Source: Blasia pusilla
Lineage: Eukaryota
Direction of reading: 5' to 3'
Assembly (NCBI GenBank): GCA_050084515.1
Contig: CM114271.1
Coordinates: 620,001-684,000 of the forward strand
Length of the DNA: 64,000 nucleotides
Of this stretch, positions 11,063 through 57,421 are shown piece by piece. The notes under the pieces are model-generated. The model did no database searches. It worked only from the letters and a program-made list of their open reading frames with translations, and had not been told where the DNA came from. Each line of letters begins with the position of its first letter. The first letter of the stretch is position 1. The position numbers were made by a program, and so were the translations under genes.

Positions 11063-12326
11063 TGTCGTATAGTAAAATCAGCCAGTGTGTAAACTCCTTC
11101 CTCATTAAGTGTTAGATAGAGTTGTATTAGTATTAAATAAATTAGCTTAGGAAAAGGAAATTCCCATGTTTAAACCTCTTTATGGTGCCTCTTTTATGCG
11201 GGCCCAACTTTAGGAAAAGAGATGATTTTATAAAAGTAAAGTAGTGAGGTTGGTGCTTTAATGAAAAGCAAAAGTAGTCTTGGTTGGTGGCTAGGTTAGT
11301 TGGGGTAATTTGGAAAATATCAAGTGGGTAAAAGAGGATATTTTGGAAGAGATAAGAAGAAATCTACTTGTGTCAAAATATGATTGGCTAAGCCTTGAGA
11401 GAAAGCCATGTGGTAGAAAATAAGATTAGCTCTATTTCGTACTCTTGTGGATCCCTTGTGAGTATACAAAGAGGAGGGACCTTCAAGGGTTCATCATCTT
11501 CTATTTTACATCTTGAGTCTCTCGTGTCACTCTTGAGTGTATGGCTTTGGGATTGCTTGCTTTTCCAATGAGAGTGGATCATCCCTCTTGGGAGAGTAAC
11601 TTGACCATGGTCTATTCTTCGAGAGGTTTCTAGAGTGTGGTGTGTGTGTGGAGATGAGAGGCTTGTCACCTTAGAGGAGTTTAGTTATACTAAAATAGTG
11701 AATATTTTGGCTTGTTATTTTCCCAATGAGAGTGGATTATTCTTCTTCGGAGAATAATTCCGCCAAAGCCCATTCTTGAGGAGAGTAGATAATGTTTGTC
11801 AAGCATGGATAGGGGTGGAGCAAGAGTTGTGCTCGACTTTCCTTTCCTCAATCCATACCATGTCAAGGTACTCTTTGTAGATAGGCAGTGGTGTACTCGC
11901 TATTTAGTTTATGACTTTGGAAAGGCGTTCATGAACCAGGTCATGCAATTTCCAACTCCGGTGATTCTTCTTATCGTCACATATGGAAGGACACCGGATT
12001 GTACTTTGTATGTCCTTATATAGCGATCCATGGAAGTCAATAGGCCTGCTCAAGTAGGATTTAACACTAGTTGTGCTATCTTCCTCGTGTACAAGCGTAA
12101 AGTAGTTTATAGGGACTTTATAGTTAGGAATTTCGGGGTCCGATGTTACGAAGAAGTGATCGCCTCATCACTTCCATTTGTGATATCTATCGTGAGATAA
12201 TGAAGAGTAGACATAATAATTTTGTATTGAAAAAGGAGATCTTCTTAGAGAGTTTACCTTGCATCAACCACGTGTGCCGCAACTAGAAGGGTTGCCCTTA
12301 CTCGAAGAAAGGCTCTCGACATGACA
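11063..12326. mobile_element. 1264-bp TGTCGT...ATGACA repeat, copy 1 (solo LTR or non-autonomous element)
   Basis: Nearly identical, same length and orientation as 24667-25930. Flanks are ACAC/ACGT, so no clean TSD here. Confidence 0.85.
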
Positions 12327-15300
12327 ACGTAGTGATTCTACGTCAACAAGCCTCTAAAGGTGAGGATTTGAGGAACTACCCTCAAAGAGAAACAACGTGA
12401 AGGAGAGAGCAAGCCCAATCCATTGTTCTTCATCCATGTGGAGTATTCAGATTAGACACTTAATTTTACCAAGTGCAAAGCCAATCCATTGTTAGTGGTG
12501 AGTATGGAATATTCAAATAGACCCTCAATTTTACCAAGAAGATTATTAAGAGAGGGATAAGCCATTTGTATTTCTATCATAGGTGGAGCAATTTGTCTTT
12601 GTTGGGCATCCATATTTAAAGGGACGGAAGTTTATTGTGATATATGTTCATTACCATAAAAAAAACCTCCTAGAGATGGATATAATGAGATCTAATATAG
12701 ATTTAGAGATAGTACATGACTTGGTATTCAATCTTTTGATCAAGTCGTGTCATGATTGAAAATTTTTATTTGTTGTGCAAAATATATGTACATACTATAA
12801 AAAGTGCAAGAACATCATGATTAATCATCTCACCCTCCCATATCCCTCTTTCCTCTTGTCTATGATTAATTTTCATAACTTCCTCCATTCATGTCATGAC
12901 CCTCATAACCAAACAAACACCAAATAGGCGCCAATCCGACCATCAAAACTCTAGTGGATTCACGCTACGATGATCGCGCTTTGGAGAGGCTTTTGGGAGG
13001 GTCTTTTGGAAAAGTCCAAGAGACGAAACGTGGAACAAAGTTGTGCGTTTCATGGGTTTTTTATGGCGACCAAGAAACCTAGACCAAACGTGAACCAAGA
13101 CTTGAGATGAGTTGAGTCTTGGAAGGTTGGTTGCCAAAGAGGTGAGAACCAATTTTGGAACACGACTAGCGTTGGGGATTTTGATTGTGTTTTGGACCAT
13201 AACGTTTAGTACCAAGATGAATTTGGAACAAGTAAGAACGTGTTGGAAAGCTTATCCCAAGATGCTTCCAACGCATCAAAGATCTGAGCAAATGCATAAG
13301 TACATGCTGAGATATTGGCTGAAAACGGTTGCAAGAGCAATCGGGTTGAGGGCCAATCTGAGGGGCCCAACTGTTTGTCCCTAAAGTTAGGAGGAGGGTG
13401 GAGATCCCCATAATTACTAGTAAGGGGGAGTCTCTCCAAGGAGTCTTGGAACACAGATCCCACTTTGAGCACCAAACGACATCTCAAGGGCATGGGATGG
13501 AACGAGAGTTTGGCGTTGGAACTCGAAACCCAAACCTGATCCAAGGGAATGGACTTCGTAACCCACACTTGGATTCCAACTTGCGATTAATTTTTGTGAC
13601 TTGCAGTTAGGGACTCATTGGATGTCCGTTGGAAAATTGGAACCGCCAGGCACGAAACGATGTTTGAGATTCCTAAACTGACCAAAAAGTCTGTCCCAAG
13701 TCTTCAAAGACTTGCGTGTGTTGTAAACCGCAAAACTAGGAAGGTTGAGCTTGATGAGAGGCTGAGTCGAGAACTCGGCAAGATAGAATCCTTGATTGAT
13801 CCAGACTCGACTAACGTGAGTGCGTGTTTGGATGCAGATCAGGGTTGAGAGCGTGTACTACTGAACGCACGCTTCCGCAACAACAAAGATTAATGTTCAA
13901 GGAGAATAGGCACACGACAATTCATATGTTTTTTTGACACAAAGTTTATATAGGATACTTCCTAAAGATTAATTTGGAGTTGTTGATTGTACTCCTAAAA
14001 GGTTTGAGATTCTTCCGTATCATAGACGTATTCGCTTTGTTTGAATTCCCCCTCCTTTGTGCGAAGTCTATTGAAGACAACTTTGTCATCAAGATTGTCC
14101 CAAATTTGGGCATCATACTTCTCCGCATGACTCTTTGCACCTCTTGTATCATCGCCATGGCCACCGACACCTTCCTTCAAACCCCAATATCAATTTTGCT
14201 TTCATTAGAAGAGAGAAAATAACTTCTTAGACATCCTTAGTACTCCAAGCAATATCATTCATACCAAAACGAGGTTCCACCAAACTCTTCTTGCCCTATG
14301 AAGCATCATCCATATTGGAATGAAATATTGTTGAAAGGACTTGAGAATCGCAAAAACATGTGTTTACAGCACCAGAGAAAGCATTGAATGAATGTTGCAA
14401 GTCCTAGTTATAGACATGCAGATATGTTGCGAGTCCTCTCATACACGTAGCATATATTCATAGACTAAATATAAATTTCTTCTTGATTTTCTCCTACTAT
14501 TATTCCATCCTCATTGGAAGGCCTGAGAAAATATATCAAAATATTAATAAGAATAAATAAAACTCAAATATGAATCAAATATAAAAATTTATATATGGAT
14601 ACCTTATCAAGGGAATAGTTACAATACTCTCAGGCTGAACTTGACCATGAAGCCCTTTCCTTCTTTTTCTATATTCTCGATAGTAATTCATCTTTTTTTC
14701 TTTGAGAGCTTCCATTCTATTAGCGCAAATAGCACGCTTTCATTTTTGGGCTTCGCCACGTAGAACCTTCCGAAAGTCACGTATATCGACAGGATTCAGT
14801 GGGATTGGAAGTGTGGAACAACATATGATTGTTAAAAGCTTACGAAATTAAATGAAAAGTCGAGATTTTGTAAGGTGGGAAATTGGACATGCTAAATGAG
14901 TATCAATGTAGTAAACTTACGTTGGAGATGTTCCGGGTCGGAGTTTATCTTCAATGCGTGTTTGTTGTGCTAAGATTTCCTTGCGAAGGACACGTCTTTT
15001 TTGTTGTGCGTTCGCACGCATCAAAATTTGAAAGTCACGCAAATCCGTAGGATTTGATGGAAGAGGAAGTCAGTGCAAAAATTGGGTTTATTGCATGAGA
15101 AAAATATATTCTGGAAAAAATGGTATATAAGGCATCATCGTTGAAATTGAAATAAGGTGTTTACTTTCCTACCCTAAACAAAGGTGCTTACATCAGGGAG
15201 GTGTTCTTCAATAATTCAATATGTCTTCCCGAACTTTGTTGCGAAATTGGCACATTTGTAATAACACCGAGTGGCCGTCTCTCCATGTTTAGTGATGATC

Positions 15301-19272: not shown

Positions 19273-20194
19273 ATATAGACTTTCCTTCATTTTATTGTTG
19301 GTGGAATAAAAATGGCAATTTTTTAAACGTGGTCATAATGGTTGTGGACTACCTCTTGGTTGCTAATACCTCATATGCCCAAGTAAGAATTATGGAATTG
19401 CTGCATCTATGTATGGTGTTACGTTTAGCAACATCAAATTCTTTCCTCATATTTCTTTTATTACCATATTCAAGTAATTGGTTATATCTTTACTTTGTGT
19501 ATAAGGGAAGTAGAGTATCATTGGAAAATATTTCTTTTACACCATATTTGAGGTGAAACCTTATATGAAGATATAAGGATAATTAATGGAGTGATGAATT
19601 ACAGCTTAAAGGAAGTTGTTGTTCAATAAGGTCTTTTGGAGGATGATCAGGAACGAGGTTGCATGTGGAAAAAAATCACTGTGTGCAAGCATGTCCTTGG
19701 ACTTATGGAAGGACTTGTCAATATGGGGCCCACCTCCACCTCCCCCTTATTTCTCATCCTTCCCATTCGCCTTTGTAATCCCCACTTTCAGGTTTCTCCC
19801 ACCTCCACTCCCTCCCTCTTTATTGCCTTGCCTTGCCTTGCCTTGCGTTCCCATACTCTGCCTTCCATCATGAGCTGTACGTATGGGTCCTACCTCTTGC
19901 AATCCATGTCTATGGACATATCCTTCCTAAGGACAGTGTCGTGCGCATACACATCGCTACACAACATACATCGCTGTCTCTGAACACACACATAAATACA
20001 CACGATCCCATGCTAACTCATGGCATCCAAACAACGAGACAAGAAATACAAAAATATCTCCAATCTCGATGATAGCCACAACATTGAGCGTGGTTTGGGG
20101 TACTGCACATGGAGATGAGGGTCCTATTGTCCGAGACGAGGTTGCACCATAGCAACCACCGACATCCGCGCCGGATAGTCCTATTGTAGTCACA

Positions 20195-20772
20195 ATGGAG
20201 ACTTGGCAGCCAGATATGGGCCCTAAGTTGACAGGAGGAGAGCGGCGTCGGATACACCACTTCCTTAGGAGTTATAGGAGTTGTTTTGCATTTAGTATGC
20301 ATGATTTTGGTATGTTGAAGGGTCGAGGGATCCGCATTGAGTTATCGAGTGACACGTTGATCTTCCGACGATCCTACAGGTACAGTGACATGGAGAGGGC
20401 TCTAATTTAGAGTAGGATCCAAGACTTGGTTGGAGTAGGACTAGTGGAGATGTGGCATGGAGAGTATGCGTCTGCCATTGTCATGCCGCCAAGAAGGATG
20501 TGCATGGCAATTGGACGAATAGGCGAATGTGTGGAGATTACCAACCTATCAATCGGTAGACGAAGTCCAATAGGTATGCCATGCCCACCCCTGAGGAGAT
20601 CTTTGATGCGATTGGGCATGCAAAGGTCTTCAGTTCATTGGATTTGCGAGCGGGATACCATCAGCTGCCTATCAGATTGGAGGACAGGTAGAACACGACA
20701 TTTTGGGGCATCGATCCTCACGGGAAGGATTTTTTGTACCAATGGCGGTTCTTACCATTCGGGTTAAAGAAC
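20195..20772 (+). pseudogene. Ty3/gypsy reverse transcriptase, N-terminal fragment, inverted relative to the element
   Basis: IFRRSYRYS...LVE...YASAIVMP.KKD...RRMCGDYQPIN...YAMPTPEEIFDAIGHAKVFSSLDLRAGYHQLPI...FLPFGLKN; truncated before YxDD; stops and a frameshift. Confidence 0.92.
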
Positions 20773-21721
20773 CTCGCTCATCGGCGTTGGGCTCCACCAA
20801 CCTTTGTACCTGGTCATTCCAAACCAAGCCAGGTCCGGCCTCCTTGAATGCATAGGAAGCGAGAAAACTCACCAATATGGAAAAGCCCGCTCATGGCATG
20901 CCAATCCTGTTGACCACACTCAACGGCGGTTGATCATCGCGCCTCACTGCTTGTGATCGACGGCCCAGATCCAATATAGAATCCACCAACAAATCGGATG
21001 GACACTCCACTCTTGCATAAGCCCTGCGCAATATCTCATGTGGTATCAAGTTGATCCACCAAAGATACGGATAGTGCACTCTAGAATCTACACTCGCCGC
21101 ATCTAACAACACTGCCGGGCCAATCCATGCGCGCACCTGATGTGCACTCGTCACCACGCGGGACCTCGAATCGCCCAAAGTTGGCACATTCTCCAAAATG
21201 TGTGCCGGAGAACAAGGCTGATGCTCTTGTAAATGTCGCAAGATCTGCCTCATCTTCCAAAATAACCTGGACCGAGTGTCAGCTAACCCGCTACCTCGTC
21301 CAACACTCGATTGGCCTTGACACGGCCAACCAACAATGACCAAGTCTATGGTCCCTACCCTCTCCAAGTCCTGCGCCCCCAACAATAAAATGTCCCTCGG
21401 TAGGGAACTCTGGTAACCTTGAATGACGGGCGCAGACAACAAGTCGGGAAAACGGAGGCGTAACAGCGCCACATGGTGAAGTGAAGCGTGGCTCGCAATA
21501 TCATCAATCTCCACATATAGGTAATGTTGCACGCACACTCTAGCGTGCAAAACAACAGCGAACCCAGTGCTGATCCCTCCAAAGAGATCCAACACCTGAA
21601 TACCCTCCTCTGGGATGCACCACACAATCGGGGTGGTGTCCAAAGGGGTCATAGCAACACTCCTACCTACCTGGAGCTCCTCTGACCCATCACACTCTCT
21701 AGTGCAAGTGTCTCGCTCCAT
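20773..21721 (-). pseudogene. Retrotransposon-encoded DNMT3-like C5 cytosine methyltransferase domain
   Basis: ORF 20891-21721 has motif I VLDLFGGISTG, motif II YLYVEID, motif IV DLVIVGWPCQGQS, motif VI HILENV and a degenerate motif VIII LDAASVDSRVHYPYLWWINL. It continues after a frameshift (LVSFLASYAFKEAGPGLVW...EPNADER) to a breakpoint at 20773; the C-terminal motif X is missing. Confidence 0.92.
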
Positions 21722-21750
21722 GCGGTTTGCACATGGTCAATGGCTAAGCG

Positions 21751-22400
21751 TCAAAGCTCCTCAGTCGAGCCCCAAAGCGGCACCTCTCCTCCACGAACTA
21801 ATGCGGCTACCATGACACTCCTCTCCATAAAAATGTCAGGAATGGGAGTATTCTCTGCATGGACATTTCCCTCAATCAAATCACTAGGCCAAGTGATGAC
21901 ACTACTAAATGCTGCTAAGGTCGCCATCTCTCCTGGCCCTCGCTTGATCACTGCACTTGTGAATCGAATGGGTAATGAGCTAAGGTGCCCATCACCTGAC
22001 TGCCATCCTGGTCTGTTGGACGCTGACTCCTCCCAATAATCCAGGGAAAACACCATGGAGTTTAACACTGCTCCACCAACCAAGACGTCGTAGGACTCTA
22101 CTTCAGTCACCATGCCTTGGCTCGTACCACGGACTTATTTGGAGGATGTCCCTAGCGAATTCTCACCAAGACCTCCTGTCGGGTGATATACTGTATGGTA
22201 CTCGCTCCATCCAAGGAAGTTTGTATCCAGAATGGACAATGCTCCACATCGGCTCTTGTCAAGCCCAATCCTCTGAATGACGCTTTCCCAAACATTAGGG
22301 GTTGCGCTTCTGAATCCAACAAGACGCGCTACGGACTAAAAGCTCTACCTCCGGGACTCACCAACTAGAAGACCTCTCCTTAGTTATCCAGCAACACAAC
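21751..22400 (-). pseudogene. Retropepsin-type aspartic protease region
   Basis: RVLLDSEAQPLMLG at ~22300-22330 (DSG changed to DSE), CPFWIQTSLDG, and YDVLVGGAVL in ORF 21751-22113. Confidence 0.75.
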
Positions 22401-24411
22401 ACGAGTAGAATCCATGGCACGTTCTATTGCAGGTCTAGCGGGCATCTCTGCCATCCTAGCAGCTGTAGCCTGCCATAAATCTGACGTGGACAGCCCGAGC
22501 ATCTGCTCCAAGGGCAGGTCCATCACCTCCTTTGCAATCACCTCTAAACGTGATGCAATAACTCCAACTCCACGCTCACATAGCGTAGCCGCCAGCCGAA
22601 AAACCTCGGCGGGCGTACCTCCCAACGTCATAACATCGGAAGCAAAAAATAAAGGAGCGCGGTACACAACGGTGGCCGCCCCCAACAATGTGCTTGACAC
22701 TTGCCTCTCTTGAGCATCAGCAATAGGAGTCGTCGCACTCGCTTCTCTCATCGCCCTCTGTGCCTGCACACCAACAACATCACCAACTCTCCAAGAACTC
22801 TTATCGGGACCCATCGATGGGGTCCTCATCGCCTCGGGAAACGTGAAAGACTGAGGAAGCCTAGTATGTTTCCTGGCTTCCCCTCGTTGTGGATCCAACT
22901 CTGTGGCTGCTCCACGCGTCATAAGTGTGGCGGCCTCCATCTGGGCAACCTCGCACATCCAACCAGGATCCTCCATATCTCTTGCTGCTCCATATGATGT
23001 TGATGCCATGGATCCGGCATCGGGTAATCTCAATGCCATAGTGGCAATCTGCTCCTGTAGCTGATGTATTTGAGCAGCCATCCTAGCCTCACGCTTGGCG
23101 TCTCCCTCAACGTGTCTAGGTGGTGGGACTCTACCTCCTCCACGGGCAGCTCCACCATCCTGTGGGGCAACTCCATCTCCTCTTCCTCCAACGGGACCAC
23201 CTGATGCACGATCTCTAGCCCACCCGGACCGGCTACTCGCTCTGGTGCCCTCTCTGGCCCTTGGTCCGGACGTAACTCAGGATGTAAACTGAAACACCTG
23301 GTGCGTGTATGACCATACCTTTGACAATAGTCATACTGATAACCTCGTGGTGCAGCACAATCTCCTCCTCCGTGCTGAGCACACGTCCATGACCCTGACG
23401 AGTGCAATCACGTTGATGATGAGCTCCATCACATGACCAACAAGTAATTGTAGGCGGCTGCTACTGAGCCGCATATGAGGGCGTAGGTCTCTGTGGCACA
23501 GCCTCCCGATATCCTCCTTGAGCTCGTAGTGCCATAGTCGACCTATCTCGGAGTCCACGTTGCTGCAGAGGTGGTGCAGACAATCGTGACTGCTCTCGCC
23601 CAGAACCCATGGTGGCTACGCTGTCCTCCGCCATGTTGCGCTCAATGTTCTCGATGGTCCTAAAAACATCTCTCAACGTAGGGGAGGTGTTCATAAGAAG
23701 CAGCCCTCCCGCACTAGTGTCCGCAGGATCCGATCGAGCATCGTGTACCATGATTGGATAGCGTGAGCCTCTGTCACCCCCTGAGTGATGTTGATCAACC
23801 GGCGCAAGCGAATGTAAGCCTCACGCAAACTCTCCCCCGAGCGCCTCTGGAAGTCGTGGATGCTCCACAACTTCTCCGTCCGTACCCCTAGTAGCTCGCC
23901 CTCAACTCAACGAAGAACTCAACCACGGGGTTGAACTTGGGACGAACCCGACTAGATGGTGCAACTACTCCAGTGCGGGTGACCCCTCCTAAACATCACT
24001 AGTGGAAGAGGAAGTAGGCTCTCTTGACTCCTCCTCCTCATCTCGGAACGGCTCCTTCCATGACACATAGTATGGGTCATAGTAGAGTCGCCATGCCTCA
24101 ATCTCCTTGGCATATCTGTGGGAGAACTCATGGTAATCGTCCTTGGGCGCCCCCTCTAAATGCTGGAACATACTGTTCCATGCTGTAAACGGATTCAACT
24201 CTCTAGAGTTCCTAGCCCGCTGTGAGTCACACCAACTCCTAAACTCCGCAATGAAGTCGTGTAGTTGTATAGTGCCTACAACACCCGAAAACCTACGCGG
24301 TCCTCTACCTCGGTCATCCATCTCGTACGCCCAAGTGGTAGGACCACTCAATATGTACGGTGGATTGCTAACACACTCCTCTATATGCTCCCCCTCATCT
24401 GAAGACGACAT
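22400..24411 (-). pseudogene. Gag-like region with CCHC zinc knuckle
   Basis: Fragmented ORFs: RRFSGVVGTIQLHDFIAEFRSWCD, IHDFQRRSGESLREAYIRLRRL (~23800-23860), knuckle YDYCQRYGHTRTRCFSLHPEL (~23270-23335). Confidence 0.8.
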
Positions 24412-24666
24412 AGAAGGAGATCGAGATGGTCTCTCACGTGGAGACCCTCAAAACCACGCACCATTCCGGGTAAACCCTCCAAAGCTACTCTAAGCTCCAC
24501 TACCTCGCCTCCCAAAATCTCGAAAGGACGTCGTGATGGACCTCATGCCCCTCTCACATGATCACTCTCAATCTCGCGAGTAATCCCTCAATCACTCAAA
24601 CTAAACATGCGGCACTCAATTTACACTCTCTCATTGAGACGTGTGTTGTACGGCAACAAACAACGT

Positions 24667-25930
24667 TGTCGTATAATAAAATCAGCCAGTGTGTAAACTC
24701 CTTCCACATTAAGTGTTAGATAGAGTTGTATTAATATTAAATAAATTAGCTTAGGAAAAAGAAATTCCCATGTTTAAACCTCTTTATGGTGCCTCTTTTA
24801 TGCGGGCCCAACTTTAGGAAAAGAGATGATTTTATAAAAGTAAAGTAGTGAGGTTGGTGCTTTAATGAAAAGCAAAAGTAGTCTTGGTTGATGGCTAGGT
24901 TAGTTGGGGTAATTTGGAAAATATCAAGTGGGTAAAAGAGGATATTTTGGAAGAGATAAGAAGAAATCTACTTGTGTCAAAATATGATTGGCTAAGCCTT
25001 GAGAGAAAGCCATGTGGTAGAAGATAAGATTAGCTCTATTTCGTACTCTTGTGGATCCCTTGTGAGTATATAAAGAGGAGGGACCTTCAAGGGTTCATCA
25101 TCTTCTATTTTACATCTTGAGTCTCTCGTGTCACTCTTGAGTGTATGACTTTGGGATTGCTTGCTTTTCCAATGAGAGTGGATCATCCCTCTTGGGAGAA
25201 TAACTTGACCATGATCTATTCTTCGAGAGGTTTCTAGAGTGTGGTGTGTGTGTGGAGATGAGAGGCTTGTCACCTTAGAGGAGTTTAGTTATACTAAAAT
25301 AGTGAATATTTTGGCTTGTTATTTTCCCAATGAGAGTGGATTATTCCTCTTGGAAGAATAATTCCGCCAAAGTCCATTCTTGAAGAGAGTAGATAATGTT
25401 TGTCAAGCATGGATAGGGGTGGAGCAAGAGTTGTGCTCGACTTTCCTTTCCTCAATCCATACCATGTAAAGGTACTCTTTGTAGATAGGCACTGGTTTAC
25501 TCGCTATTTAGTTTATGACTTTGGGGAGACACTCATGAACCAGGTCATGCAATCTCCAACTCCGGTGATTCTTCCTATCGTCATATACGGAAGAACATGG
25601 GATTATACTTTATATGTCCTTATATAGCAATCCATGGAAGTCAATAGGCCTACTCAAGTAGGGTTTAACATTAGTTGAACTATCTTCCTCGTATACAAGT
25701 GTAAAGTAGTTTATAAGGATTTTATAGTTAGGAATTTCGGGGTCTGATGTTACGAAGAAGTGATCGCCTCGGCACTTCCATTTGTGATACCTGTCGTGAG
25801 AGAATGGAGAGTATACTTTATAATTTTGTATTGAAAAAGGAGAACTTCTTAGAGAGATCACCTTGCATCGACCACGTGTGCCACAACTAGTAAGGTTGTC
25901 CTTACTCGAAGAAAGGCTCTTGACATGACA
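24667..25930. mobile_element. 1264-bp TGTCGT...ATGACA repeat, copy 2, nested in the DNMT element leader
   Basis: Flanked by ACGT on both sides (24663-24666 / 25931-25934); near-identical to 11063-12326. Confidence 0.88.
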
Positions 25931-28660
25931 ACGTGATGTGGCAAATCATTGATCTGTCATCTCATCGACAAACCATCCTCAACTCTGGACATCCACACAG
26001 GTCTATGTCCCCTAAACCCATAGATCATGAATGCTCCTAGCATCAGCACGAAGCTCAATATTCAAATAACTTCCCAATATCCGGAAATCCCTCACACGTT
26101 CAGGGTAAGAGACCAGAATGGATAACCTGACAATAATATCGATGTCGCTCCTCGGCAAGTGCAAATCTCGACCCCAACTCGGTCGTAAAGACAACTCCTC
26201 CAATCAGCAAGTCGTACTCCTCTCGTACTCATGCTGCTCAAACCTCCTCGATGTGCGGTGCAGGTCCAGCGGTCCGGTGCGGCAATGGCGGCACGGAACG
26301 GCTACAAATGGCACGGCACTCAAGAATGGGATGTGGCACTCGGCGGCATACCCTCCTCAATCAGAAATTCACACGCTCTGCTCCTTAGTGAAGGAGCGGC
26401 TACGTGATCGAGACGGTGCAGCCACGAGCGGCAGGGCGCAGCAATGGGCAACGCGTTGCGGCTACGGGCGTCACGGCACGATACTCGATCGTCGTTGAGC
26501 GGCTATCAATCATAACATAGCAGCATGAAATGAAAACTCAAACACCATAACCCCAGGTCATCTGCCATCACTGGTTGATGAGGAAAGTACGATGATGGTG
26601 GCGGCAAAAACAAAGTACGTGGTGGCGCAGCAAGTCACAGAATCAACGGTCGTGGTGGAAGACCCTCCATTCCATAATGGCGGCAACGGCAACCAAAGGG
26701 TGGACAACGGACGAACGCGGCTCTGAGCAATGGGCGGCAGCGGCCGACAGTGGACGGTGGACCGTTGATAGTGACGATTGATCGTTGATGGTGACGACCG
26801 ACCGTTGACGGTGATGATTGACCGTTGACCATTGATCGTTGACTAGTGATGGTGACAATTGACCATCGACGGTGGACCATTGACGGTGACTATGACGGCG
26901 GCGACTGCCACGGCGTGGTGGCTGGTTTAGGGTTTGAACAATTTAACCCTAAAAATCGCCTAGCAATGGTAGTTTTGTAAGATTGACCATAACTTTTTGC
27001 TCGCAACTCCAAATTGCGCACCATATGTTGCACAACATGCATAGCTTCATGATCTACAACAAAATCAAAAAATATTTTGAATTGAACATTCCAGTAAAAA
27101 TTGACGAGGACTATTATAAAGCCCAATGTCTCTTTCTCCTACACAAAATTCGGCAGTGCTTCCGTGCTGATTTCTCCCAACGAAAATGTAAAACCTGTAC
27201 AAATACAAATCAACAAGCTACATGGTGCTCCTGAGAGCATCGGCATGGGGCAACCCGCCCCCATACTCAATCCCTATCAAAAGTTGGGCAGCGCTTCCGC
27301 GCGCCATTCGTCCAGACGAAAAATCGGCAAAGGAAACATTACAAGTAAGCGGCTCTTGCTCCGGTGAGCACTCCCATGAACCGCTGAACGGGGAATATGG
27401 TCCCCAACCTGGAAAACCAATGAGTGACCAGCGAGCTCCGCCATGACACTCTCTCACTCACCCATTCTCTCTTTGTAAAATAAGATCCAATCTCTCTCAC
27501 AACACCATAGTTCTCACATGTGTGCACTCTCATATGTCTCTCTCACCGTCAAACCAAACCCACTCTCCTAATGAGAGGCTTGGGTTACACACACAAGGCA
27601 AGCAAGACCATAGCTCCACCGCCTCATGCCAAGAGGTTCAACAAAGAGAGAATGAGCTCTCAAGCTCTCTCTCCTTGAGATATACCCCTCCCCTCTCCCA
27701 AGCTCTCTCCATGGTAACCTATGCTCCCAAGTCACGTCATTGGCTCTTGACCTGATGTAGGAGGTCAAAGGTCACTTACTAAAAATAGAAAGTCGATCAT
27801 ATACTCAAAATGGTAATTACCAAAAATAAAAAGTCGATCATATACTCAAAATGGTACTTATCTAAAATAGAAAGTTCTTCAATATGGCTCTAAATGAGCC
27901 GAAATGAAGGGGAAACCTGCTCTCTTAGGTTTCCAATGGCCTTAGCAGGTCATCCTCGACCTATTGAGCCTGTCCTCCACTACTCACGAAGGCGATCTAC
28001 TAGATCTCACCGACATATCCTAAAAGACGTGACAACAGACTTATCTGTTTTTGTGCAACCATGATCAAGAAATAATCTCTTACTTACAAGAAGCCCTAAA
28101 GATTCATACGTGTTGCTTTCTTCATAGGCTCTTTATTGTTATTCTAGCTTGTAACACTCTTGCTCAACCGATCTTATTATGGGAATAATATTTGGTATAT
28201 TTTACCAATGACCTATTTTACCTACGATGTGAGATAGCCTTCCATTTCCAATTTTCTATTTATCTACATTCTCATTCCTACCACGTCTCTCATACTAAAT
28301 GTTGACACTTATTTGATTTTTTGTGATAATGTCATTTTAGAGAACAAGACTTCCAAACCTACCTTTGGATTTGATTACCATAAATAGCATATTATTAGAA
28401 GTGGACTACCATCTACAACTTTACAAGATCAAGGAAAAAGATTGTCAAACTTTCCAGATTTGCCTCAACCCACTTTCCATACACACACTACTATGCCAAC
28501 ACATTTAGAAGAAATAAGGCTTCTAAACAATCAAGACAAATTGTTGGAAAGAGTTATAGTTGGAGAGTCAAAATTTAATAATGGCCATGGTGTGGTTTGG
28601 GATGCTCTACATGAGGAGATAGAAAATATTCTTTAGAATGCTCCGCCATCACCAAAATTA

Positions 28661-33007: not shown

Positions 33008-34980
33008 ATGTTGTTGCGCAGCAGCTCGACGCCGTTGCTGAGGTCTCTATCCAGTGGATCCCTCGCTCATTCCGAAAGCCTGCGAGAAGTAGAGTGGGAG
33101 AGTGACTCTCCAATTCACTCCCGTGTGTATAGGACAGTCTCGTTCTCCACCGCGACGATTTCTCCTGGGCCCCAGAATTTTGGTGTAGCTGACGATACTC
33201 GGTCCGTAGAGAGCGGAGACTGGGACTTTTGTGGAGATGCAGTCACTTGGCCAAGATTCAGGAGAGCTCAATCCGAAGGCGATCTGCAGAGTCTTGGCCG
33301 GGGATCAGCTCTATCTGCAGTAGCCGAGTCCTTGACTACTTCTACTAGAATGAACAAAGGATTAGATGGTTTGACTGACGCAGAGAACCTGACCAACGTG
33401 GGAAGACAATGGTGTCGTCGAATGGCGGTGAGGCGGCAATCTTCGTTAAGCGTAATTCCATCTAGCAGCGGTACAAGCCGCGGGTCCGAAGCATCGGGGA
33501 GCGATATTTTAGGATTTGGGAAATCTGAGAGATCTGAAGAAGAGGAGGAAGAAACGTTTTTCGAGGAAGTACATGTTGCAGAATCTGTCCACGGCTCCAT
33601 CGACCTTTGGCAAAGGGCGCGCGATGCTTGTCCAACTACCAAGCATCGTGGAGACTCCCTTGAAAAAAGCATGGAAGGAGGGCTTGCACTGGACGGTTTG
33701 GATTCGGAGTTTCGATTGGTGTCGGATGCCGCGCAAGGTGTGACTGCGAGTGGCAAAGACTCTCAAGCCAAGAATTTTGCTTCCGTTTCTGGCAGGGGTG
33801 ATCATGGGTTTTTCGAGGGAGCGAGCCGGGGAGAAAAGTACTCAATCATGGCGACTGGTGCGGACGGAACGATGCTAGTCTGCAACTCACGGGGAAGTAC
33901 GTCTGTGACACCATCGGATCTTGTCGGTCCAATGTTTATAGCCGGCGGATTTGGAATGGGTAGCGGTGGAGTTGGTGGTCGTAACGTTCCAAACGTTGGT
34001 ACCGGTGGAGGAGGAGGAGGCCGAGATGATTCATTGGGAATCGATGCTTATTACAAGCGAGCTTTGGAAGCGGATCCTGGGCAGCCGCTCTTGCTTCGAA
34101 ACTACGCCAGGTTTCTGCACGAGGTGGGTGTGAGAGAAAGAATGAAGGAAAGAGATTTGATTGTTTTGTCCACGGGAAGCGCATATGATTCTGAGAACTC
34201 CGTGCGTATTAAATTGCATCCGGCGGGCAGTTCACGATCAGGACAATCCAACTTCCAGGTCTCATTTTTGAAAGAGATTCATGGTATAAAGACCACTAAC
34301 CCGGACATTAGTCAAATTATAAAAGTCGTTCTCTCTCCGTGCTCGTAGGCTGAGGCCGCCCCCACTTTGCGTTCGAGGGATTAAAAGCTCCTTGCACGAG
34401 AAGATCTTCAGCTACTCCAGTAAACTATCCACCGCCGGATAGTAATCTGCACGAGTTTCTGATTTTATTGGTCGTGTGGCAGGTTAAGAAGGATAATCGC
34501 AGCGCGGAGCCGTATTATGAGAGGGCCATTTTAGCCAATCCTGGTGACGGTGAGTTGCTGGGGCTGTACGCCAAACTTATATGGGATGTTTACAAAGACG
34601 AGGAACGAGCTGGGAGCTACTTCGACCGAGCCTTGCTGGCAGCTCCCGAGAACAGGTCAGTTATCGTGTGTCTCGTTCCTGAAGCCTTGTTCAGACGTTT
34701 AGTATATGTCAGAATCTATTTCATATCGTCATCCCGGCATTTTCTCCAGACAGTCAGAAAGCGGGAATCAAATTTCATGATTGTGGACCGCGCTCTGTGC
34801 ATCAAACTTCTTAACAATTTCTGCGGCTTTGATTAATGCAGTTACGTAGTGGCCGCCTACGCTTCTTTCATGTGGTCCGCGGAGGGTGACGAAGAGACCC
34901 AGGAGCAAATCATACACACCAGTGGGCATGGTGCAAACATTGGTCAGCGCTACTTAAACAGTTCGGTTACAGCTGCCTGA
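33008..34980 (+). CDS. Tetratricopeptide-repeat protein, plant MLLRSSSTP family, about 475 aa
   Basis: Exons 33008-34123, 34483-34655 and 34842-34980 with GT-AG borders in phase. N-terminus MLLRSSSTP, RRAQSEGDL motif, Gly-rich linker, TPR helices YYKRALEADPGQPLLLRNYARFLHE / YYERAILANPGDGELLGLYAKLIW / YVVAAYASFMW. Confidence 0.92.
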
Positions 34981-46548: not shown

Positions 46549-47820
46549 AGTACTTCTTCTTCAAGTAGGTTTATTTGTCAAACAAGCCACTCCTCTTCTA
46601 AATATTTTGTTCTGTACTTCTCATGAGGTACAATGATGCTTTTGTATAAATTATTGTTGGCGTCTCAATATAACTAAGATATGAAAATTGTTATGGGCAT
46701 ATACATCGCTAGTCACGTCTACGCAACTTGCAACATTGATCTTCCCAACACGTAGATAAATCCACACATAAATGAAATATACTCATACATATATACCAAG
46801 ATTACGTTATTCCCCCCCCCCCCCCTAATTGGCAGTTGGGTCCTCCTAATGCCTCATACTAGCCATCACATCTACCTGGCATGATCTACTATCCTATACA
46901 CATCTAGCATCATCAATGCTCTCATACCCGCAATATCTTCCAATACATGCTTGCCCTGGATTCCATTTCATCTATCTCTACCTCGAGATATATTTCATCT
47001 TGCAACATTGCAACTAACCTCCGTGTTGATCCTTACGAAGAGATCTAACACTCTCACATCTTCCTTTGGATGTTGCCTCACAATAGGTGTGGTATCCAAG
47101 AATATGAAGTCTCCACTCCAAGAGCATGACCATCACCTCATCTATTACAAGAAAAAAAGCATGACTCCATGTCTACCTCATTGGCCCTCATGAGCTCGTC
47201 TACACTTCTCTACAAGTCAACGCTTGTAACCACTGATGATGACGAGGTCTCATTACCATCGGAAGAGAAACCCATCTTGGCATGTCTCTCCACAGGACTA
47301 TCCTCTATTGGGACGTCCTCTCCATGAGTGCTCCTCTCCAACAACTCCCTCACCAACTACTCAGTCCCCATGAATACTCCCAATTTGGTTATGGTATCAC
47401 CTCGTAGACCACCACTACATCCTCCAAATCGCAAAAGTACGTAAATGGTCATCCATCTATCACCTGGTCGCCATCCTAGCCGATAAGCAACCATTCCATT
47501 CCAAAATTGAGGATTAAACCAACGGGGTATAATACTGTAATCCCTACCAACGTATCATACAACTTTGTTGGTATTGTTATTGTAGGAGAGCATACCATCA
47601 CACTATCTGATGCATGCTTCAAGTCTCACAACTAGCTCTTGCAAGTCATGTATTGTGTGGACAACCCATCCTCAATAAAGGTCTGTATCTAAAAGGGACA
47701 AGGCTCAATGTTGCCTTCCCATAATCCCAACCCCAAACACGTCATCTTCCCTACGAGCTTCCCTACTATAAGGGGTTTCATTCCCAAGTCAAGTCAGACG
47801 CCTTACGGATGATACACTCT

Positions 47821-48991
47821 TGTCGTGCGCAAACACATCGCTACACAGTCCATATTTTTGGTCATATCCACACTATACAACATTGATCTTCCCAATATAG
47901 AGATACATCCACTCATATACAAAAATGAACTCATGCATGTACATTAAGATCACACAAGGTACCCCGAAGTTGGCAATTAGGTCTCCCTAACTCCTTAGTA
48001 TATATCACACATATCTGACATGACCTACTATCCTATACACATCTAGGATATAACCATCATCCCATAGAGATTGCACCAAGAGGGAAGGTCAAATACGATA
48101 TATGCCATTCTCTAGAACAACTATCACACATCAACATGGTACATGGCTGCACCTATTGTAGGTCCACACAACATACATCTCAAGCCCATAGGCACCACTG
48201 CCAAGCTTGGATCCACTATCCCATCCATATTTGGAAGATGACAAGGCACATAGTTGCATGCATGATCCTTCCGAACCATACTATCTTGTCCTTCCAACAC
48301 GAGGACTCCGGTCAGTAACACCTTGCGAACACGCAAAAGCATGCACCCTACAATGACATATAGGGTCGTGGGTGTTGAAGATCTTTCTTCTCTAAAATTT
48401 GAGTACAAATAGCTCACATAGCGAAATCCAAATCTATATTGGCATATTGAGCCACATCCACCCTCCTCTATGAGGAAGTCCAGACACTAGCACACGCAAA
48501 AGCATGTGCCATATAATTACATCTAGGGTCGTGGGTGCTAAGGATCTTTCTTATGTAAAATCTCAATAAAAATGGCTCACATGGTGAGAGCTACTCTTGA
48601 ATATATATTGGCGTATTGAGCCACATCAACCCTCCTCTATGAGAGAGTTTGGATACTAGCACCCAAGTTCCTTCTACACACAAAGCAAGAGAGGTGCTCC
48701 TAAGGCTCAACGTAAGAAATATGGCTTGAGAAAGCCATATCTCCCTCCCTTATAGCCTTCAATGATAACGTGCATGCACAAGTTACCAGGTGACCCTTCA
48801 CTCAATCAACAAGTTACTTGTCTGAAAAAGACCAATATACAAAATTGCTCAAAAAAAACTTTTCCAACGCAATGGACCTGCCATCAACCTCATTTCAACA
48901 CTTGAGGATGAAGTTACACCCAAACAACCCGCTGATCCTCTATGTTGTCAATATGGTAGAACTCTATTTGTTGGCTTACTAAGATGTGACA
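47821..48991 (-). mobile_element. 1.17-kb internally deleted derivative retaining the polyprotein tail and PHD finger, nested in the protease of copy 2
   Basis: Termini TGTCGTGCGC and AAGATGTGACA. The host protease sequence is contiguous across it, with 4 extra nt that may be a decayed TSD. Confidence 0.75.
48033..48345 (-). pseudogene. Polyprotein C-terminus (probable integrase tail) with PHD finger
   Basis: LRVRKVLLTGVLVLEGQD...DHACNYVPCHLPNMDG..DP...CMLCG...(frameshift)TMLMCDSCSREWHISYLTFPLGAISMG*WLYPRCV-stop, a decayed C4HC3 pattern. Confidence 0.78.
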
Positions 48992-51900
48992 CCATACATA
49001 GGGTACAAACCAAGCGGAACACCTTGCTTTGGTTTTTCAACAACACCACATCTAGTGTCACCTTGGCTCACTCTATCAAGTCAAGTTAGCATATCTACCA
49101 ACTTTGCCAATGAAACCTACCATGATTGAGTGGAGACATCCCGAGCACCTACTCTGAGGGCATGTCCACCACCTTCTCAATGACTACCTCCGAACACAAA
49201 GTATTAACCTCTCCATGCTCACACAATGTGACAGCCAATTGGAACACCTCTGCTCATTCAACTCCCAATGTTGCCAAGTCCAACCATATAGGAAAACAAT
49301 GGAGCCTAACTCACCCTAATGGCCATCTCTGATAAAGTAGTTGATACTAACTCCACCTGAGCTGACATAGAAGTCGCCTCTCCAACTCTTTGTGACGTGG
49401 ACACACTTGTTACACTTGTGGGTACCGTTGGTCATCTAGCTAAGCACCATCATTAATGGTGTATGTCATGCCTCCAACAATGTAAAAGACAATGGAACCC
49501 TATCCTATTTCCCATTTCTCCCCTTGTGTGGGTCTATCTCAATCCCAACTCTCTATGTCTTGGTCACTCCCATAGCACCTCAAGTCACCACAACAATAGC
49601 CTCTACATGAGCCGCACTATAGATAAATCTCAAACTAGCGTAATCCTCCTCCCTTGTATCTTCATACGACGTAGAGGTTGGAGCTAAATTAGCTACTCTT
49701 GGCTTTGTGTCAATCATTGTTTGGGTCATTTTCATGTCAAAAATCCTCATCTCCAATTCATTGATACAAGCGAGGACCGCTATGTAGAGTGCACCATCAC
49801 CGTCATCTCCTGTGATTGATGGTGGAACTCCACCATCACGGTTATCAGCTCCTCACCCTCCACCAACTCTCTCATCCTTAGGCCCTCAACCTACCTCTAG
49901 ACGTATCTCTTGGCAAAGATTAAAACACCTATCCCTATTATGATCATATTGGTAACAACAATCAAACTCAAGCTATAGTGTGGCCATTCTATATGGCTCT
50001 TGAACAATGAGAGGCGTCCTCAATCCTCTACCATGATGTGGGCAATCCCTTTGCCTATGGGATCCACCGCACATCCAACAAGCCAAAATTGATCCTTGCT
50101 AGCCAATGTATGTCGACACAAGTTGTTGTCTCATGTGCTCACAATACCGGCCCTGCTCTGGGGGCACACCGGCCTACTCTCGTGGCATTGGTGCACGTTG
50201 GGGCACTCATGCATCCATTGAATCTTATGGGAATCCTGCTCCTCACTCATTTTGAGTTCAATCTACTAAGACAATTGAATAACCCCTTCAATATGGGATT
50301 CAAGCTTCAATATACATGTGAGGCAAAATTCCATCCAAAACTCTCCTTCACACCTCTCAATCTAGAACCTTGTACCAATACTAAATTGCATCTACCTTAG
50401 TCACTCCATGATGGCAATGATCAATCACTGTTTGCATCAAACGCCTCCTATAGACTCTCACCTAATCTCAATTGAAACTCCCATAGACTATTCAGCTTGT
50501 TAGTTTGCACGCCTTGGTAGCTCCTCCCCAACTCTCGGAGTAACTCCACCATAGGACTGAAACTAGGCAACCCTCTACCACCTTAGGTCTTTATCATCTC
50601 ACAACCATTACTTTTGTTATCTCCATCTAGTCCTTGGGCTAATGATGTGGATCTAACTGCTCTCACTACCCCATCATATGTCTCATAACTGCTAGTGGAC
50701 ACATATCTTGGAGCCTAATACACCTTCCAAGCATCAATCTCTAGTGCGTGGAAAGACCAAACTCACAATAATCATCTATTGAAAATCCCTCTAAATGCTA
50801 GAATAAACCCTTTCACACCATGAAAGGATTGAAGGGCATAGGAAATTGTATATCCTAGAAATCACACCTTATGTCAAAGTCTTGGATGAAGTCATCAAGA
50901 TTAAGGGTGCCTACTGCATTCGAGAAATGACGCATGCCCCTGTGGCTGATATTGTCCATCTCTCCCCACGTAATAATGTCTCTGTCTGCGATCTTATCAC
51001 TAGATCCTCTATCTCGTGATGATGATCCAAACACGAATGATAGTCGAGCTGGTTCCTCACTTGAAATCCCTCAATAGCTTACTTTGGCCCGTTCCTTGTA
51101 ATACCACTATCACTGCTCAAACCATATACCCTGTTCTTCTTAACCTTGGAAGAACATCGTGATTGCAACCCTACCTCACATGCATACTCACACACCCAAG
51201 CATTTGGACTTACTTAGAGTCTTCCGCATCTTTACTAGCTCACCTATGTCAATGCTAGTCCCATGATGACACATAATTGTCCTCATGCGCACTCAATCAC
51301 TTGAGCCCACACCGAGCCTCTCGTACTAACTCACCTAAACTATCAACAACCTTGGATTATACACACGACCCCCACTAGGACAACAACCCTATACCCACAA
51401 ACACGCTACATACACAAAGAGTCTACACTCAACACCATCGCTACACCCATCTAGAACTAGCTCTATCCAATACCCAACACCTCCAATGACACAAGATAAG
51501 TGTGGGAAAGGGACTTGAATGGATAATCTGAACATGCACGCAATCACTCTATCGCCTAATCAATATTGAGTCTTCCATGTGGTGCAGTAACCTTTTTGGC
51601 ACGACAATCTCATCGAACCTTTTGTGAACCGATGCGGACTACCCGTCGGTATTGGTGCATGTGTATTTATCTCTAGCCCTCCGTTGCAAACTCTCGGCGT
51701 GAATAACCCATCTCAATACTAGCAAGTCAAAATTATGTCAACGATTTGCAATGAGGGGCAAATCTCGCCACAAATCGCAATATGCACTTGGAAACACCAA
51801 GTCGTAAAAATCATGGAGAAACCTCTCCAATCAACTGCCTATCCTCTTGGAGGTTAGGTGGTCAATCCTATTATGTTGGATTTCTTGACCACGTAGCTAC

Positions 51901-54900: not shown

Positions 54901-55168
54901 TGCTCCCAAGTCACCTCCTTGACTCTTGACCTGATGTAGGAGGTCAAGGTCCACTTACAAAAAATATAAATTTGATCACATACTCAAAATGGTACTTACC
55001 TAAAATAGTAAGTTCCTCAATATGGCTCCAAATGAGCCGAAACGAAAGGGAAACCTGCTCTCTTTCAAGTTTTCCGGGGCCTCAGCAGGTCATCTTCAAC
55101 CTACTGAGCCTGTCCTCCACTACTCACAAAAGCTCTCTACTAGATCTCACCGATCTATCCCTAGAGAC

Positions 55169-55170
<2 letters not shown>

Positions 55171-55230
<60 letters not shown>

Positions 55231-55338
55231 GTGAGTGAGTGAGTGAGTGAGTGAGTGAGTGAGTGAGTGAGTGAGTGAGTGAGTGAGTGAGTGAGTGAGT
55301 GAGTGAGTGAGTGAGTGAGTGAGTGTGAATGAATGAAT
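55171..55338. repeat. Compound microsatellite (GA)n(GTGA)n(GAAT)n
   Basis: Seen directly; abuts the LINE 3' end. Confidence 0.97.
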
Positions 55339-57421
55339 AGATTTATTGTCCACGGGGATCCCATAGGGCTATGGGACTTAGTTTTGAGACTTAACAACAA
55401 TTTTGAAGAGAAAGAGCAAGCACCAACAAGGGCCTAAGGGGTCCTCTGAGCCAAGTGAGTGTCTTTGGTCTTCACACAACTATGCAAGAATTTAGCAATC
55501 TTAATTTGATTCTGCTAGCCATGAATGCGAGGACCTTGGGAGCCCGATGATCAAAGAGATCCGGGAAGTCAAGCCTAATGTAATTGTGAAAGGTGCAGTC
55601 AAAGAGGTAGTGATGTTCATCATCAATGAGCCCCAAGTTGCAAAATCTACATAATCTATCCTCCCTTTTCTTCTGTGAGAATTTTCCTTTCTCAATCTCA
55701 AGGTCAGTAGAGCCACATCTGAATCTCGCTAATGTATGACGTAACTTAGTGGGAATGGGGGCAGTGATGTAAGAGGCTTGCTGCATGGATCTGCAACTGT
55801 TCATGAGGGTGTGGTAGCGCCTCATTCTTTCACCATTTTTGTGAGATGAATTCCCCTTGCTTTCCCACAGACGCTGATGTCGGCCCCGATTGATGGCAAT
55901 GTAATTGATGTGTAATTGTTCAGCAAGGTCCTGGTGGGTGGCCGTAGGCAGGTCGCCGATGGATATTCCCCATTTCATGAGCCACTTCGTGCAGTCATAG
56001 TACCAATTTTTAGCCCCAAGAATGGCACTACGTTTTGAAACCACATAGGCCGTGGAGGATAGACGATTGGGATAGTCCTCGCAGACATCCTCGAGGTGTT
56101 GGAGAAATGTGATCAAATTTTTAACAACATGGATCTCCATTGATACCTCCCCAAACTCAGCCCATAGAATGTCATGGGGAGTGGTTTTCTTAATGCCTAG
56201 ACTCTAATGTATGAAGAGTTTCTGGGCAACCTCAAGGCCCTGGGGCCAAGCCTTGGGGCTAGGGCCCCACACCTTAGATGCATAGAGTGTGGCTGGGATC
56301 ACCAGAGCTTTGAAGAGATGGAGTTTTGTGAAATATGCTAGAGTTCCATTCTTCTGCAATTGGATTGTAGCGGGTGTAGACCCCTCAAGCTTGCATTGAT
56401 CTTGTTGCGACTCCCATTGGTTCTCCATTGGTTGTTGGGTTTGAGTTGCACCTCAAGTATATGTACTAACCCACAATCTTAATGGTCTCCCTTCTCAGTC
56501 CCTGGCTGAAGGTGAAAGTGTGTGACCGCTGTGCCGTAGGGAGCTGTGATCCACAGATGATTATCTTCATTTTCAGCAAGTTGACTTCCATGCCCGATTT
56601 GTTGCATAAGCTTGATAGTGCATTCAGGTAAAGTTGGAGCCCATGTGCCGTTCTAGACATCATAACTATATCATGTGCGTACAACAGCAGGGGGATGAGG
56701 CAATGTGCTAGCTCTGGCGGATCTCCATTCACTCCAAAGAGCACCTCTTCAAGTTCATCAATGTAGAGCCCAAAAAATGTAGGTGAGAGGGGGCATCCTT
56801 GTTTGACTCCGGTGTTGGAAGATAAAGTTTCAGATCTGCCCCTCTTAGTGGCAATTTGTGCAAACACCTGAGCATATAAGACCTTGATTGTTGTAAGTTA
56901 TTGTGGTGGGACACCCAACTCTTCAAGTCGTTTCCAAAGAAGTGGCCTTGGGACTGTGTCAAATGCCCTCTTGAAGTCTACAAAACAGCAGAACAATTTA
57001 CCCAACTTGTGACCAATTCTCAACTTGAAAGTTTCTTCAATCCGTGCTCTGAGTGTGAGAAGGTCATCCAAGGTGCTATGTGAGTGTCAAAAACTTGCTT
57101 GTCCTCTGGCACGCACCTTCTTTTCTTCAACCCAGTCGCTGATTTTCCTTTCCAGCAGTAGCTCGTACAACTTGGCCATGAGGGAGCTCACCATGATTGT
57201 CCTGTAGTTGGATGGTACATTGGGTCTCCAGCCTTGAAGAGTGGGTAGATCGTATTCATTTGCCATTATGGTGGGAAGCCTTGTTGAGCTGTAGTATTGA
57301 ACATTCTGGTAAGGGTTGGGCCAATTGCCTCACTACGAATTTGAACATCTGAGCCTGGCACCCTAGGACATCCTCCAGTTTGTTATGTAGCCTTTTGAGG
57401 CATGATGTGACATCTTCAATG
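55227..57421 (-). mobile_element. 5'-truncated non-LTR retrotransposon (RTEX/RTE-like LINE)
   Basis: RT motifs NYRTIMVSS, FVDFKRAFDTV, GVKQGCPLSPTFFGLYIDEL, LLYAHDIV. C-terminal LARFRCGS.DLEIEKG...RLCRFC...DDEHHYLFDC zinc finger. AATAAA followed by a (TTCA)/(CTCA)n tail. Frameshifted. Confidence 0.9.

Follow-up and report, generated by a model that had tools for sequence, protein, structure and literature searches.

DNMT3-bearing Gypsy elements have been published for the alga Klebsormidium nitens (KnitGypsy-Dnmt3; de Mendoza et al. 2018, PMC5890265). Their repeats follow the plan A-coding-B-A-B, which the authors call 'the same as that of a DIRS retrotransposon', and in the available text of that paper K. 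nitens alone among green plants is reported with Gypsy-Dnmt3. The same text describes the SymbioDIRS-Dnmt3 elements of dinoflagellates, which also have a Dnmt3-type domain in Pol and the A-coding-B-A-B plan, and states that the role of a retrotransposon-borne DNMT 'remains unclear'. Later papers, in the portions available, call these elements streptophyte Gypsy-DNMT3 (PMC12344493; preprint 10.64898/2026.05.21.726589). Here we analyse a stretch of 64,000 nucleotides of the liverwort Blasia pusilla (assembly GCA_050084515.1, contig CM114271.1, positions 620,001 to 684,000; hereafter the window), in which a first-pass annotation made from the letters alone had noted a Ty3/gypsy-like retroelement that encodes its own cytosine methyltransferase.

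We are highly confident that the region 19937-28034 (minus strand, hereafter copy 1) is a pseudogenised and rearranged insertion of the Ty3/gypsy type, and that the Gag-Pol of its family carries a DNMT3-type C5 methyltransferase between the protease (PR) and the reverse transcriptase (RT). The comparison with relatives shows that in liverworts, in mosses and in the alga Closterium the DNMT domain is a regular, multi-copy part of this family. Copy 1 itself is dead and encodes nothing functional. Its extent as a whole bounded element is given by collinear tblastn matches to Marchantia proteins and by its termini.

The methyltransferase domain and its family

The DNMT domain of copy 1 (20774-21652, minus strand) comprises motifs I-IX in 293 codons of a single frame, interrupted by one stop at 20891-20893, and is 57% identical (tblastn) to residues 864-1156 of the Marchantia protein Mp_4g09160 (P0234). 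The Pfam test that the first-pass annotation had proposed gave a clear answer, i.e. the minus-strand open reading frame (ORF) 20891-21736 (281 aa) matches PF00145 with an E value of 3.6e-10 and 40.2 bits, against a curated cut-off of 22. Motifs I (LDLFGGISTG, 21563-21592), II (YLYVEID, 21503-21523), IV (GWPCQGQS, 21308-21331), VI (ILENVP, 21182-21199) and VIII (SRVHYPYLWWINL, 21047-21085) are all on the minus strand, and the order from motif I to motif IX, running from 21592 down to 20816, is canonical and non-permuted, as had been claimed. The region of motif X, where relatives carry LGQAMD, is displaced by an inversion. The family consensus retains motifs I, IV (PCQ), VI (ENV), VIII (RxR), IX and X. 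Copy 1 keeps PCQ and ENV, but it has lost RxR: its motif VIII reads SRVHYPYLWW as opposed to SRAHRPRLWW in the consensus, so that both arginines are gone (HRPR to HYPY).

It is useful to compare the domain with the known families of cytosine methyltransferases. A search of the PDB with the single sequence gave DNMT3A/B first (E 2.6e-5). With a profile built from 16 sequences of the family, DNMT3A/B/C came out on top (E about 2e-12), tobacco and Arabidopsis DRM were the second-best family (6e-7 to 6e-5), and HaeIII/HhaI (3e-4 to 1e-3) and DNMT2 (2e-3 or worse) followed; no DNMT1 or chromomethylase (CMT) was found at E<=1 in this search. A Foldseek search with an AlphaFold model, which we use as weak support only, gave DNMT3A/B entries for all matches listed to rank 49 (E 2.8e-6 to 5e-5). 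The ESM Atlas returned generic PF00145 clusters only, some of them viral and all without taxonomy or architecture. Although plant DRM2 is the runner-up, the DRM domain is permuted and only its motif I-V half aligns (profile positions 38-164), whereas the domain of the element is non-permuted. Animal DNMT3A and DNMT3B are the top matches in both sequence and fold, and their motifs are like those of the element in order as well as in wording, e.g. SRAHRPRLWWTNL aligns to AHRARYFWGNL of DNMT3A. They differ from the element in as much as the identity is about 20-25%, PWWP and ADD are absent from the element, and its domain is part of a polyprotein that ends in a PHD finger. These comparisons bear out the earlier suggestion of a DNMT3-like rather than DRM-like enzyme, and support a placement in which the domain appears closer to DNMT3 than to DNMT1, CMT, DRM, DNMT2 or the bacterial enzymes.

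The remains of gag and of the protease precede the DNMT domain on the same strand, in the order that the first-pass annotation had read. Both were identified via collinear alignment to Marchantia proteins, and P0234 is collinear with copy 1 from 24306 down to 20774. Gag (23273-24306, minus strand) aligns to residues 9-354 of P0234 in five pieces by tblastn, which occupy three frames and contain 2 stops. It has one intact CX2CX4HX4C knuckle (CWSCDGAHHQRDC, 23404-23442) and a second, degenerate one (23294-23329). The linker and the aspartic protease (21712-23090, minus strand) align to residues 395-842 with 41-49% identity and 5 stops, and the active site reads LLDSEAQ (22302-22322) where a Marchantia relative has LLDSGAQ, i.e. 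DSG has become DSE. None of the window's own ORFs was assigned to a gag, zinc-knuckle or protease family by Pfam; zf-CCHC matches the relatives P0036, P0162 and P0293 but not the gag ORF of the window, and the protease is weak in Pfam even in relatives (Asp_protease_2 with E 2.8e-4 in P0036, below the cut-off). Altogether, the alignment of gag, PR and DNMT of copy 1 to P0234 falls into 8 pieces, which use all three frames, change frame at least 7 times and contain 8 in-frame stops. With these stops and the lost motif VIII arginines, this particular copy makes no functional product.

The regularity of the arrangement is seen in the relatives. Among 1.84 billion representative proteins searched, 1151 matched at E<=1e-3 and 385 of these at E<=1e-10. 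When 255 fetched proteins were sorted by domain order, about 65 had the DNMT domain after RT and RNase H (RH) and before the integrase (INT), i.e. RT-RH-DNMT-INT-(PHD), about 29 had the order (CCHC)-PR-DNMT-RT-(RH-INT), and 158 showed DNMT alone. The relative P0036 is a single ORF of 2188 aa with zf-CCHC, protease, DNA_methylase, RVT_1, RNase H and rve in this order. The nearest relatives (55-63% identity) are annotated bryophyte proteins from Marchantia polymorpha, Calypogeia fissa and Sphagnum species; among 28 long homologs, 15 are from M. polymorpha, 2 from Calypogeia and 2 from Sphagnum. The 15 M. polymorpha proteins, as well as proteins of Calypogeia, Sphagnum and Closterium, are collinear with copy 1, in the Marchantia proteins P0236 and P0241 DNMT precedes RT and RH, and the deeper members of the PR-DNMT-RT form, which are Closterium proteins, show the same order.

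Metagenomic DNA agrees with this picture. We fetched 80 loci with a DNMT domain. PR is located within 600 nt 5' of DNMT in 41 of 43 loci (the misses are L049 and L079), and of the 41 loci with enough downstream sequence 39 have RT after DNMT on the same strand and no more than 2.5 kb away (misses L033 and L035). RH and INT come after RT in the loci of the PR-DNMT-RT form. A post-integrase region is present in 34 loci, and in L074 it contains a Pfam PHD finger (PF00628, E 9e-9). The window itself has an older, 3'-truncated copy of the family (copy 2, 47010-55175, minus strand) with the same PR-to-DNMT junction, the spacing being 496 nt in copy 2 and 484 nt in copy 1. A Dnmt3-type domain is thus found within the Gag-Pol frame of a Gypsy element in many copies; it is multi-copy, common to the family and matched by PF00145, rather than single-copy, absent from other members or without a Pfam match. 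The expected order gag-PR-DNMT-RT-RH-INT-PHD is found in the relatives, namely in P0036, in the Marchantia proteins and in dozens of metagenome loci, with PHD in L074. The full plan of the family starts with a repeat A, continues with gag (which has two CCHC knuckles), PR, DNMT, RT, RNase H, integrase, a PHD finger and a polypurine tract, and closes with B-A-B.

The split repeats of this plan were seen in 4 of the 12 loci examined (L069, L074, L063 and L024); L059 has one pair and 7 loci have none. In these four loci an A of about 330 bp precedes gag, while a B of about 115 bp, a gap of about 4 nt, a second A and a second B follow the integrase/PHD region. A polypurine run (AGGGGGG) immediately precedes the first B, the gap between the first B and the second A reads GCTA, GCTG or ATTG, and the termini are TGTCATGACC...CGCACGACA. 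Target duplications of 4 bp are exact in L074 (CATA) and L063 (AAGG), and match in 3 of 4 bases in L069. The A-B and B-A junctions also occur in reads of the window's own species. Note that the layout resembles a two-repeat circle junction opened elsewhere, which is odd for an element with a DDE integrase.

Trees of the DNMT domain, built without host DNMT3, DRM, MET1 and CMT sequences, separate the two domain orders. In a FastTree of 156 domains copy 1 falls into a clade of 38 rows (support 100) to which each of the 17 Marchantia, Calypogeia and Sphagnum rows in the tree belongs, and no member of the RT-RH-DNMT form. The latter makes up a group of 83 rows (support 96), and one row labelled PR-DNMT (P0033) is found on its side. 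IQ-TREE on 66 chosen rows places copy 1 in an 18-row clade (SH-aLRT 100), with 25 RT-RH-DNMT rows on one side of a branch whose support is only 69.

The ratio of nonsynonymous to synonymous substitution (dN/dS), which the first-pass annotation had proposed to compute across copies, was calculated pairwise for 65 metagenome loci by the Nei-Gojobori method with stop codons skipped. The median for DNMT is 0.58 (interquartile range 0.48-0.67) over 2059 of 2080 pairs, the 21 unused pairs having dS <= 0.05; 18 pairs are at or above 1, and the median drops to 0.18 in pairs with dS above 1 (n=126). For RT-RH the median is 0.37 (23 loci, 225 pairs, 22 of them saturated). Terminal decay inflates the ratio. 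The values fit purifying selection acting upon the DNMT domain while the family was active, weaker than the selection on RT.

Termini, inversion and decay of copy 1

The claim of a single element bounded by a target-site duplication is well founded. Read in element orientation, copy 1 begins with TGTCACG at 28034 and ends with GCGCACGACA at 19937, i.e. it has TG..CA ends, and the tetranucleotide ACAG stands on both sides (19933-19936 and 28035-28038, read directly from the sequence). The termini TGTCACG...CGCACGACA agree with those of related loci; the 5' end resembles their TGTCATG, and the 3' end matches the B ends TCGCACGACA of the four split-repeat loci. A 10-nt word, GACATATCCT (19917-19926 and 28012-28021), was also considered as target-site duplication and rejected because its right copy falls within copy 1.

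Copy 1 has no pair of long terminal repeats (LTRs) or other flanking direct repeats, either in the repeat search or with blastn at word sizes 9 and 7, which we attribute to the split-repeat architecture combined with an internal deletion. Of the split repeats it retains only A...B. Their bounds follow from 10 DNA reads of run X15, of which about 1 in 100 was read, that connect 20064 straight to 27548, i.e. the A-B junction of other copies; consequently, repeat A corresponds to 27548-28034 (487 bp, 5' end of the element) and repeat B to 19937-20064 (128 bp, 3' end), both on the minus strand. Read depth and the likeness of its 5' end also mark repeat A, and the end match to related loci marks repeat B. 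Contigs of X4 connect 28034-28036 to 19937-19939 with 1-4 letters between them, which is the B-A junction, and 545 reads of X15 run off ahead of 19937. In the window's own species the read depth is tens-fold higher at the termini than in the interior of the element, e.g. 31.6+36 in the bin 27438-27731 against 0.02-6.5 per strand inside. Repeat A also contains three tandem units of 41 nt (27767-27889).

The first-pass annotation had placed a gypsy RT fragment next to the methyltransferase. The adjacency is real; however, the RT piece is neither in line nor on the same strand, since it belongs to an inverted segment (20086-20772, plus strand; defined by alignment to P0236) made up of a remnant of the DNMT C-terminus (20086-20206) and the start of RT (20204-20772, the first ~190 codons). 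P0236 residues 696-846 align on the plus strand of this segment with 48-63% identity, and residues 691-720 align to 20189-20278 (VTMETWQPDMG...). At 20086-20109 we find ERGLGYCT where relatives read ERAMGF, a weak match with a score of 25-26. The minus-strand DNMT ends with ...EPNADER at 20774 and the plus-strand RT ends with ...PFGLKN at 20772, one base apart. In relatives, precisely this segment comes after ADER, so that the inversion happened in place. Everything from the middle of RT through the inner B-A repeats, including RNase H and the integrase, is deleted from copy 1, so that only PR and the inverted RT start remain of a Pol order, PR-RT-RH-INT, that is seen in relatives.

Copy 1 was probably inserted via an integrase, since it has a 4-bp duplication and TG..CA ends. 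It would then have been inactivated by point decay, by the inversion of 20086-20772, by the deletion from mid-RT to the inner B-A, and by the insertion of an unrelated repeat.

Comparison with described elements and possible roles

The family is similar to KnitGypsy-Dnmt3 as far as the latter can be judged from the available text of PMC5890265, although none of our hits could be assigned to K. nitens. Both have an intronless, non-permuted Dnmt3-type domain in a Gypsy Pol, signs of purifying selection and a streptophyte host. The A-coding-B-A-B plan of the four split-repeat loci and of the junction reads corresponds to the published description. The hosts are different, i.e. the alga K. nitens there and a liverwort here, with relatives in Marchantia, Calypogeia, Sphagnum and Closterium. 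SymbioDIRS-Dnmt3 is more distant, in as much as it is a DIRS element with a tyrosine recombinase according to the same text, while the present family combines a DDE integrase and an aspartic protease with target duplications of 4 bp. A third comparison concerns the gypsy polyproteins of the RT-RH-DNMT-INT-PHD form, such as 'pol' KAF8056149.1 of Scenedesmus sp. PABB004, BDL97_09G086500 of Sphagnum fallax and many metagenome proteins. These carry the same kind of DNMT (32-38% identity) and a post-integrase region with a PHD finger that is 38-50% identical to the family's loci, but their DNMT lies between RNase H and integrase instead of protease and RT. A PHD finger closes both forms, and the protein P0020 has a Tudor domain in addition.

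The two positions may go back to a single capture and a later move, or to two captures that were independent of each other. We give an even chance to the view that Gypsy-Dnmt3 is an old streptophyte lineage that came onto land, with PR-DNMT-RT in Closterium (Zygnematophyceae), liverworts (B. pusilla, M. polymorpha and Calypogeia) and the moss Sphagnum and a sister form, RNase H-DNMT-integrase, in chlorophytes and mosses. The kind of element is already known from Klebsormidium, and its extension onto land may be unreported: a literature search that covered subscription journals and supplements thinly yielded no publication on such elements from liverworts, mosses or Closterium, nor on two alternative DNMT positions. 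In Marchantia, a gag-PR-DNMT model of 1278 aa is the centre of one cluster with 18 members at 90% identity, a hint of copies that are young and possibly still active.

Hosts defend themselves against transposons mainly by cytosine methylation, and a transposon with its own de novo methyltransferase is therefore a paradox. In intact members the DNMT would be translated with Pol. We speculate that it methylates the element's own new complementary DNA (cDNA) or the DNA around the insertion, and that the C-terminal PHD finger may read chromatin (histone tails) and direct integration or methylation; both ideas follow the discussion in PMC5890265, in its available text.

Several points weigh against our main reading of copy 1 and its family and have to be kept in mind. 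All 80 metagenome copies are decayed, with no ORF over the DNMT longer than 467 aa. The Marchantia proteins are gene models that may bypass stops via predicted introns. RNA reads on gag-PR-DNMT of copy 1 amount to 0 to 0.25 per bin. The pairs behind the dN/dS medians are not independent, and shallow pairs lie at about 0.6. The quality of the AlphaFold model is mediocre (mean pLDDT 59.5, core 66-89, disordered ends; Foldseek TM 0.3-0.4), and a derivation from a host DNMT3 is suggested by the PDB ranking only. Finally, in the one published test the Gypsy-Dnmt3 domain of Klebsormidium gave no methylation in yeast, a result that the authors deem inconclusive in the text available (PMC5890265).

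The most durable alternative is that the DNMT was kept for another role, such as RNA methylation, a structural or dimerising function in Pol, or binding to a host DNMT3 partner like DNMT3L; we consider this unlikely. In the family consensus the catalytic PCQ, ENV and RxR are conserved, as is the FGG motif that binds S-adenosylmethionine (SAM), and DNMT3L-type inactive paralogs have lost the catalytic and SAM-binding motifs. A dN/dS above that of RT-RH (0.58 versus 0.37) would suit a role other than DNA methylation, as would the inactivity in yeast. RNA methylation has been raised for LINE-borne DNMTs in the discussion of PMC5890265, although the SymbioDIRS-Dnmt3 domains of dinoflagellates methylate CG de novo according to the same available text.

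It is less probable still that the inversion at 20086-20772 is an artefact of assembly and that DNMT and RT are in line at the true locus. The read depth over the junction is low (3.7+4.6 in the bin 20676-20969) and no contig piece among those listed crosses it; on the other hand, the depth is continuous and no alternative joint or loose end appears at 20773 among the rows listed. Even with the two domains in line, copy 1 would lack most of RT, RH and INT and have 8 stops. The idea of a one-off capture or chance, i.e. a fragment or pseudogene of a host DNMT3 beside gypsy debris in copy 1 only, would suit the opposite strand of RT, the missing LTR pair and a region full of nested repeats, but it is hardly credible given multi-copy, collinear relatives: the same PR-to-DNMT junction recurs in copy 2, in the 15 Marchantia proteins and at 41 of 43 loci, P0036 holds the whole order in one ORF, and the inverted RT piece is the exact segment 3' of DNMT in relatives. 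The capture of a host DNMT3 and the carriage of gene fragments by a Helitron or a Pack-type element were both dropped given the collinear polyprotein relatives.

If Marchantia has young and still active copies, the function of retrotransposon-borne DNMTs becomes addressable in a genetically tractable land plant. Copy 1 is itself only a fossil. The material of the 2018 paper, in its available text, consisted of one alga and dinoflagellates; the occurrence in liverworts and mosses, including Marchantia polymorpha, widens both the age and the range of such elements. M. polymorpha, with its transformation, methylomes and mutants, offers a system for self-methylation of cDNA, target-site marking or self-restraint, and the two DNMT positions in Pol provide a natural comparison for the acquisition or movement of a domain.

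Copy 2 and the surroundings

Copy 2 was delimited by tblastx against copy 1 and by tblastn with Marchantia and Calypogeia proteins. Its 5' region (53901-55172) is 77% identical to 26621-28032 over 1.4 kb. It is followed on the minus strand by gag with CCHC (49451-50941), PR (47249-47865) and the motif I stretch of DNMT, LDTTPIVRQHPKEDVRVLDLF... (47010-47099), all three found by tblastx/tblastn. The protease region of copy 2 harbours a 3'-terminal fragment of a related element (47821-48480, minus strand; 30-42% identity to the C-termini of P0009, P0252 and P0037 in tblastn) that comprises a post-integrase region, a PHD finger (about 48039-48137) and the end of a repeat B. The latter is recognised by a 27-nt match between the repeat-B end of copy 1 (19937-19963) and 47821-47847; this match had been considered as the left end of copy 2, and was rejected as belonging to the fragment inside it.

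The leader of copy 1, between repeat A and gag (24448-27547, minus strand), belongs with its part 26621-27547 to the block 26621-28032 that is common to copy 2. An unrelated repeat of 1268 bp is nested in the leader (24667-25934); it is 95% identical to 11063-12330 and has no long ORF. RNA reads of X19 cover its part 24792-25085 at a depth of 8.7, and many molecules start at 25005; since the reads carry fixed differences, they probably come from another copy of the repeat.

The neighbourhoods of the two copies have further repeat families in common, which flank their 3' ends (19704-19923/42257-42468 and 19027-19268/46054-46453). A long run of (GA)n, with a CTCA/CTCT-type microsatellite after it (55175-55430), directly adjoins the 5' end of copy 2, and the ORFs at 55472-56897 (minus strand) are a candidate non-LTR (LINE-type) RT with a C-terminal region, judging by resemblance. 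Finally, a host gene of the TmcB/TmcC TPR-repeat kind is located at 33008-34836 (plus strand). Over 33008-34348 it is nearest to Marchantia paleacea (49%) and M. polymorpha (47%), with Riccia next at 31-36%, which points to a liverwort that is a relative of Marchantia but stands outside this genus, in agreement with the land-plant host that had been proposed from the letters alone.

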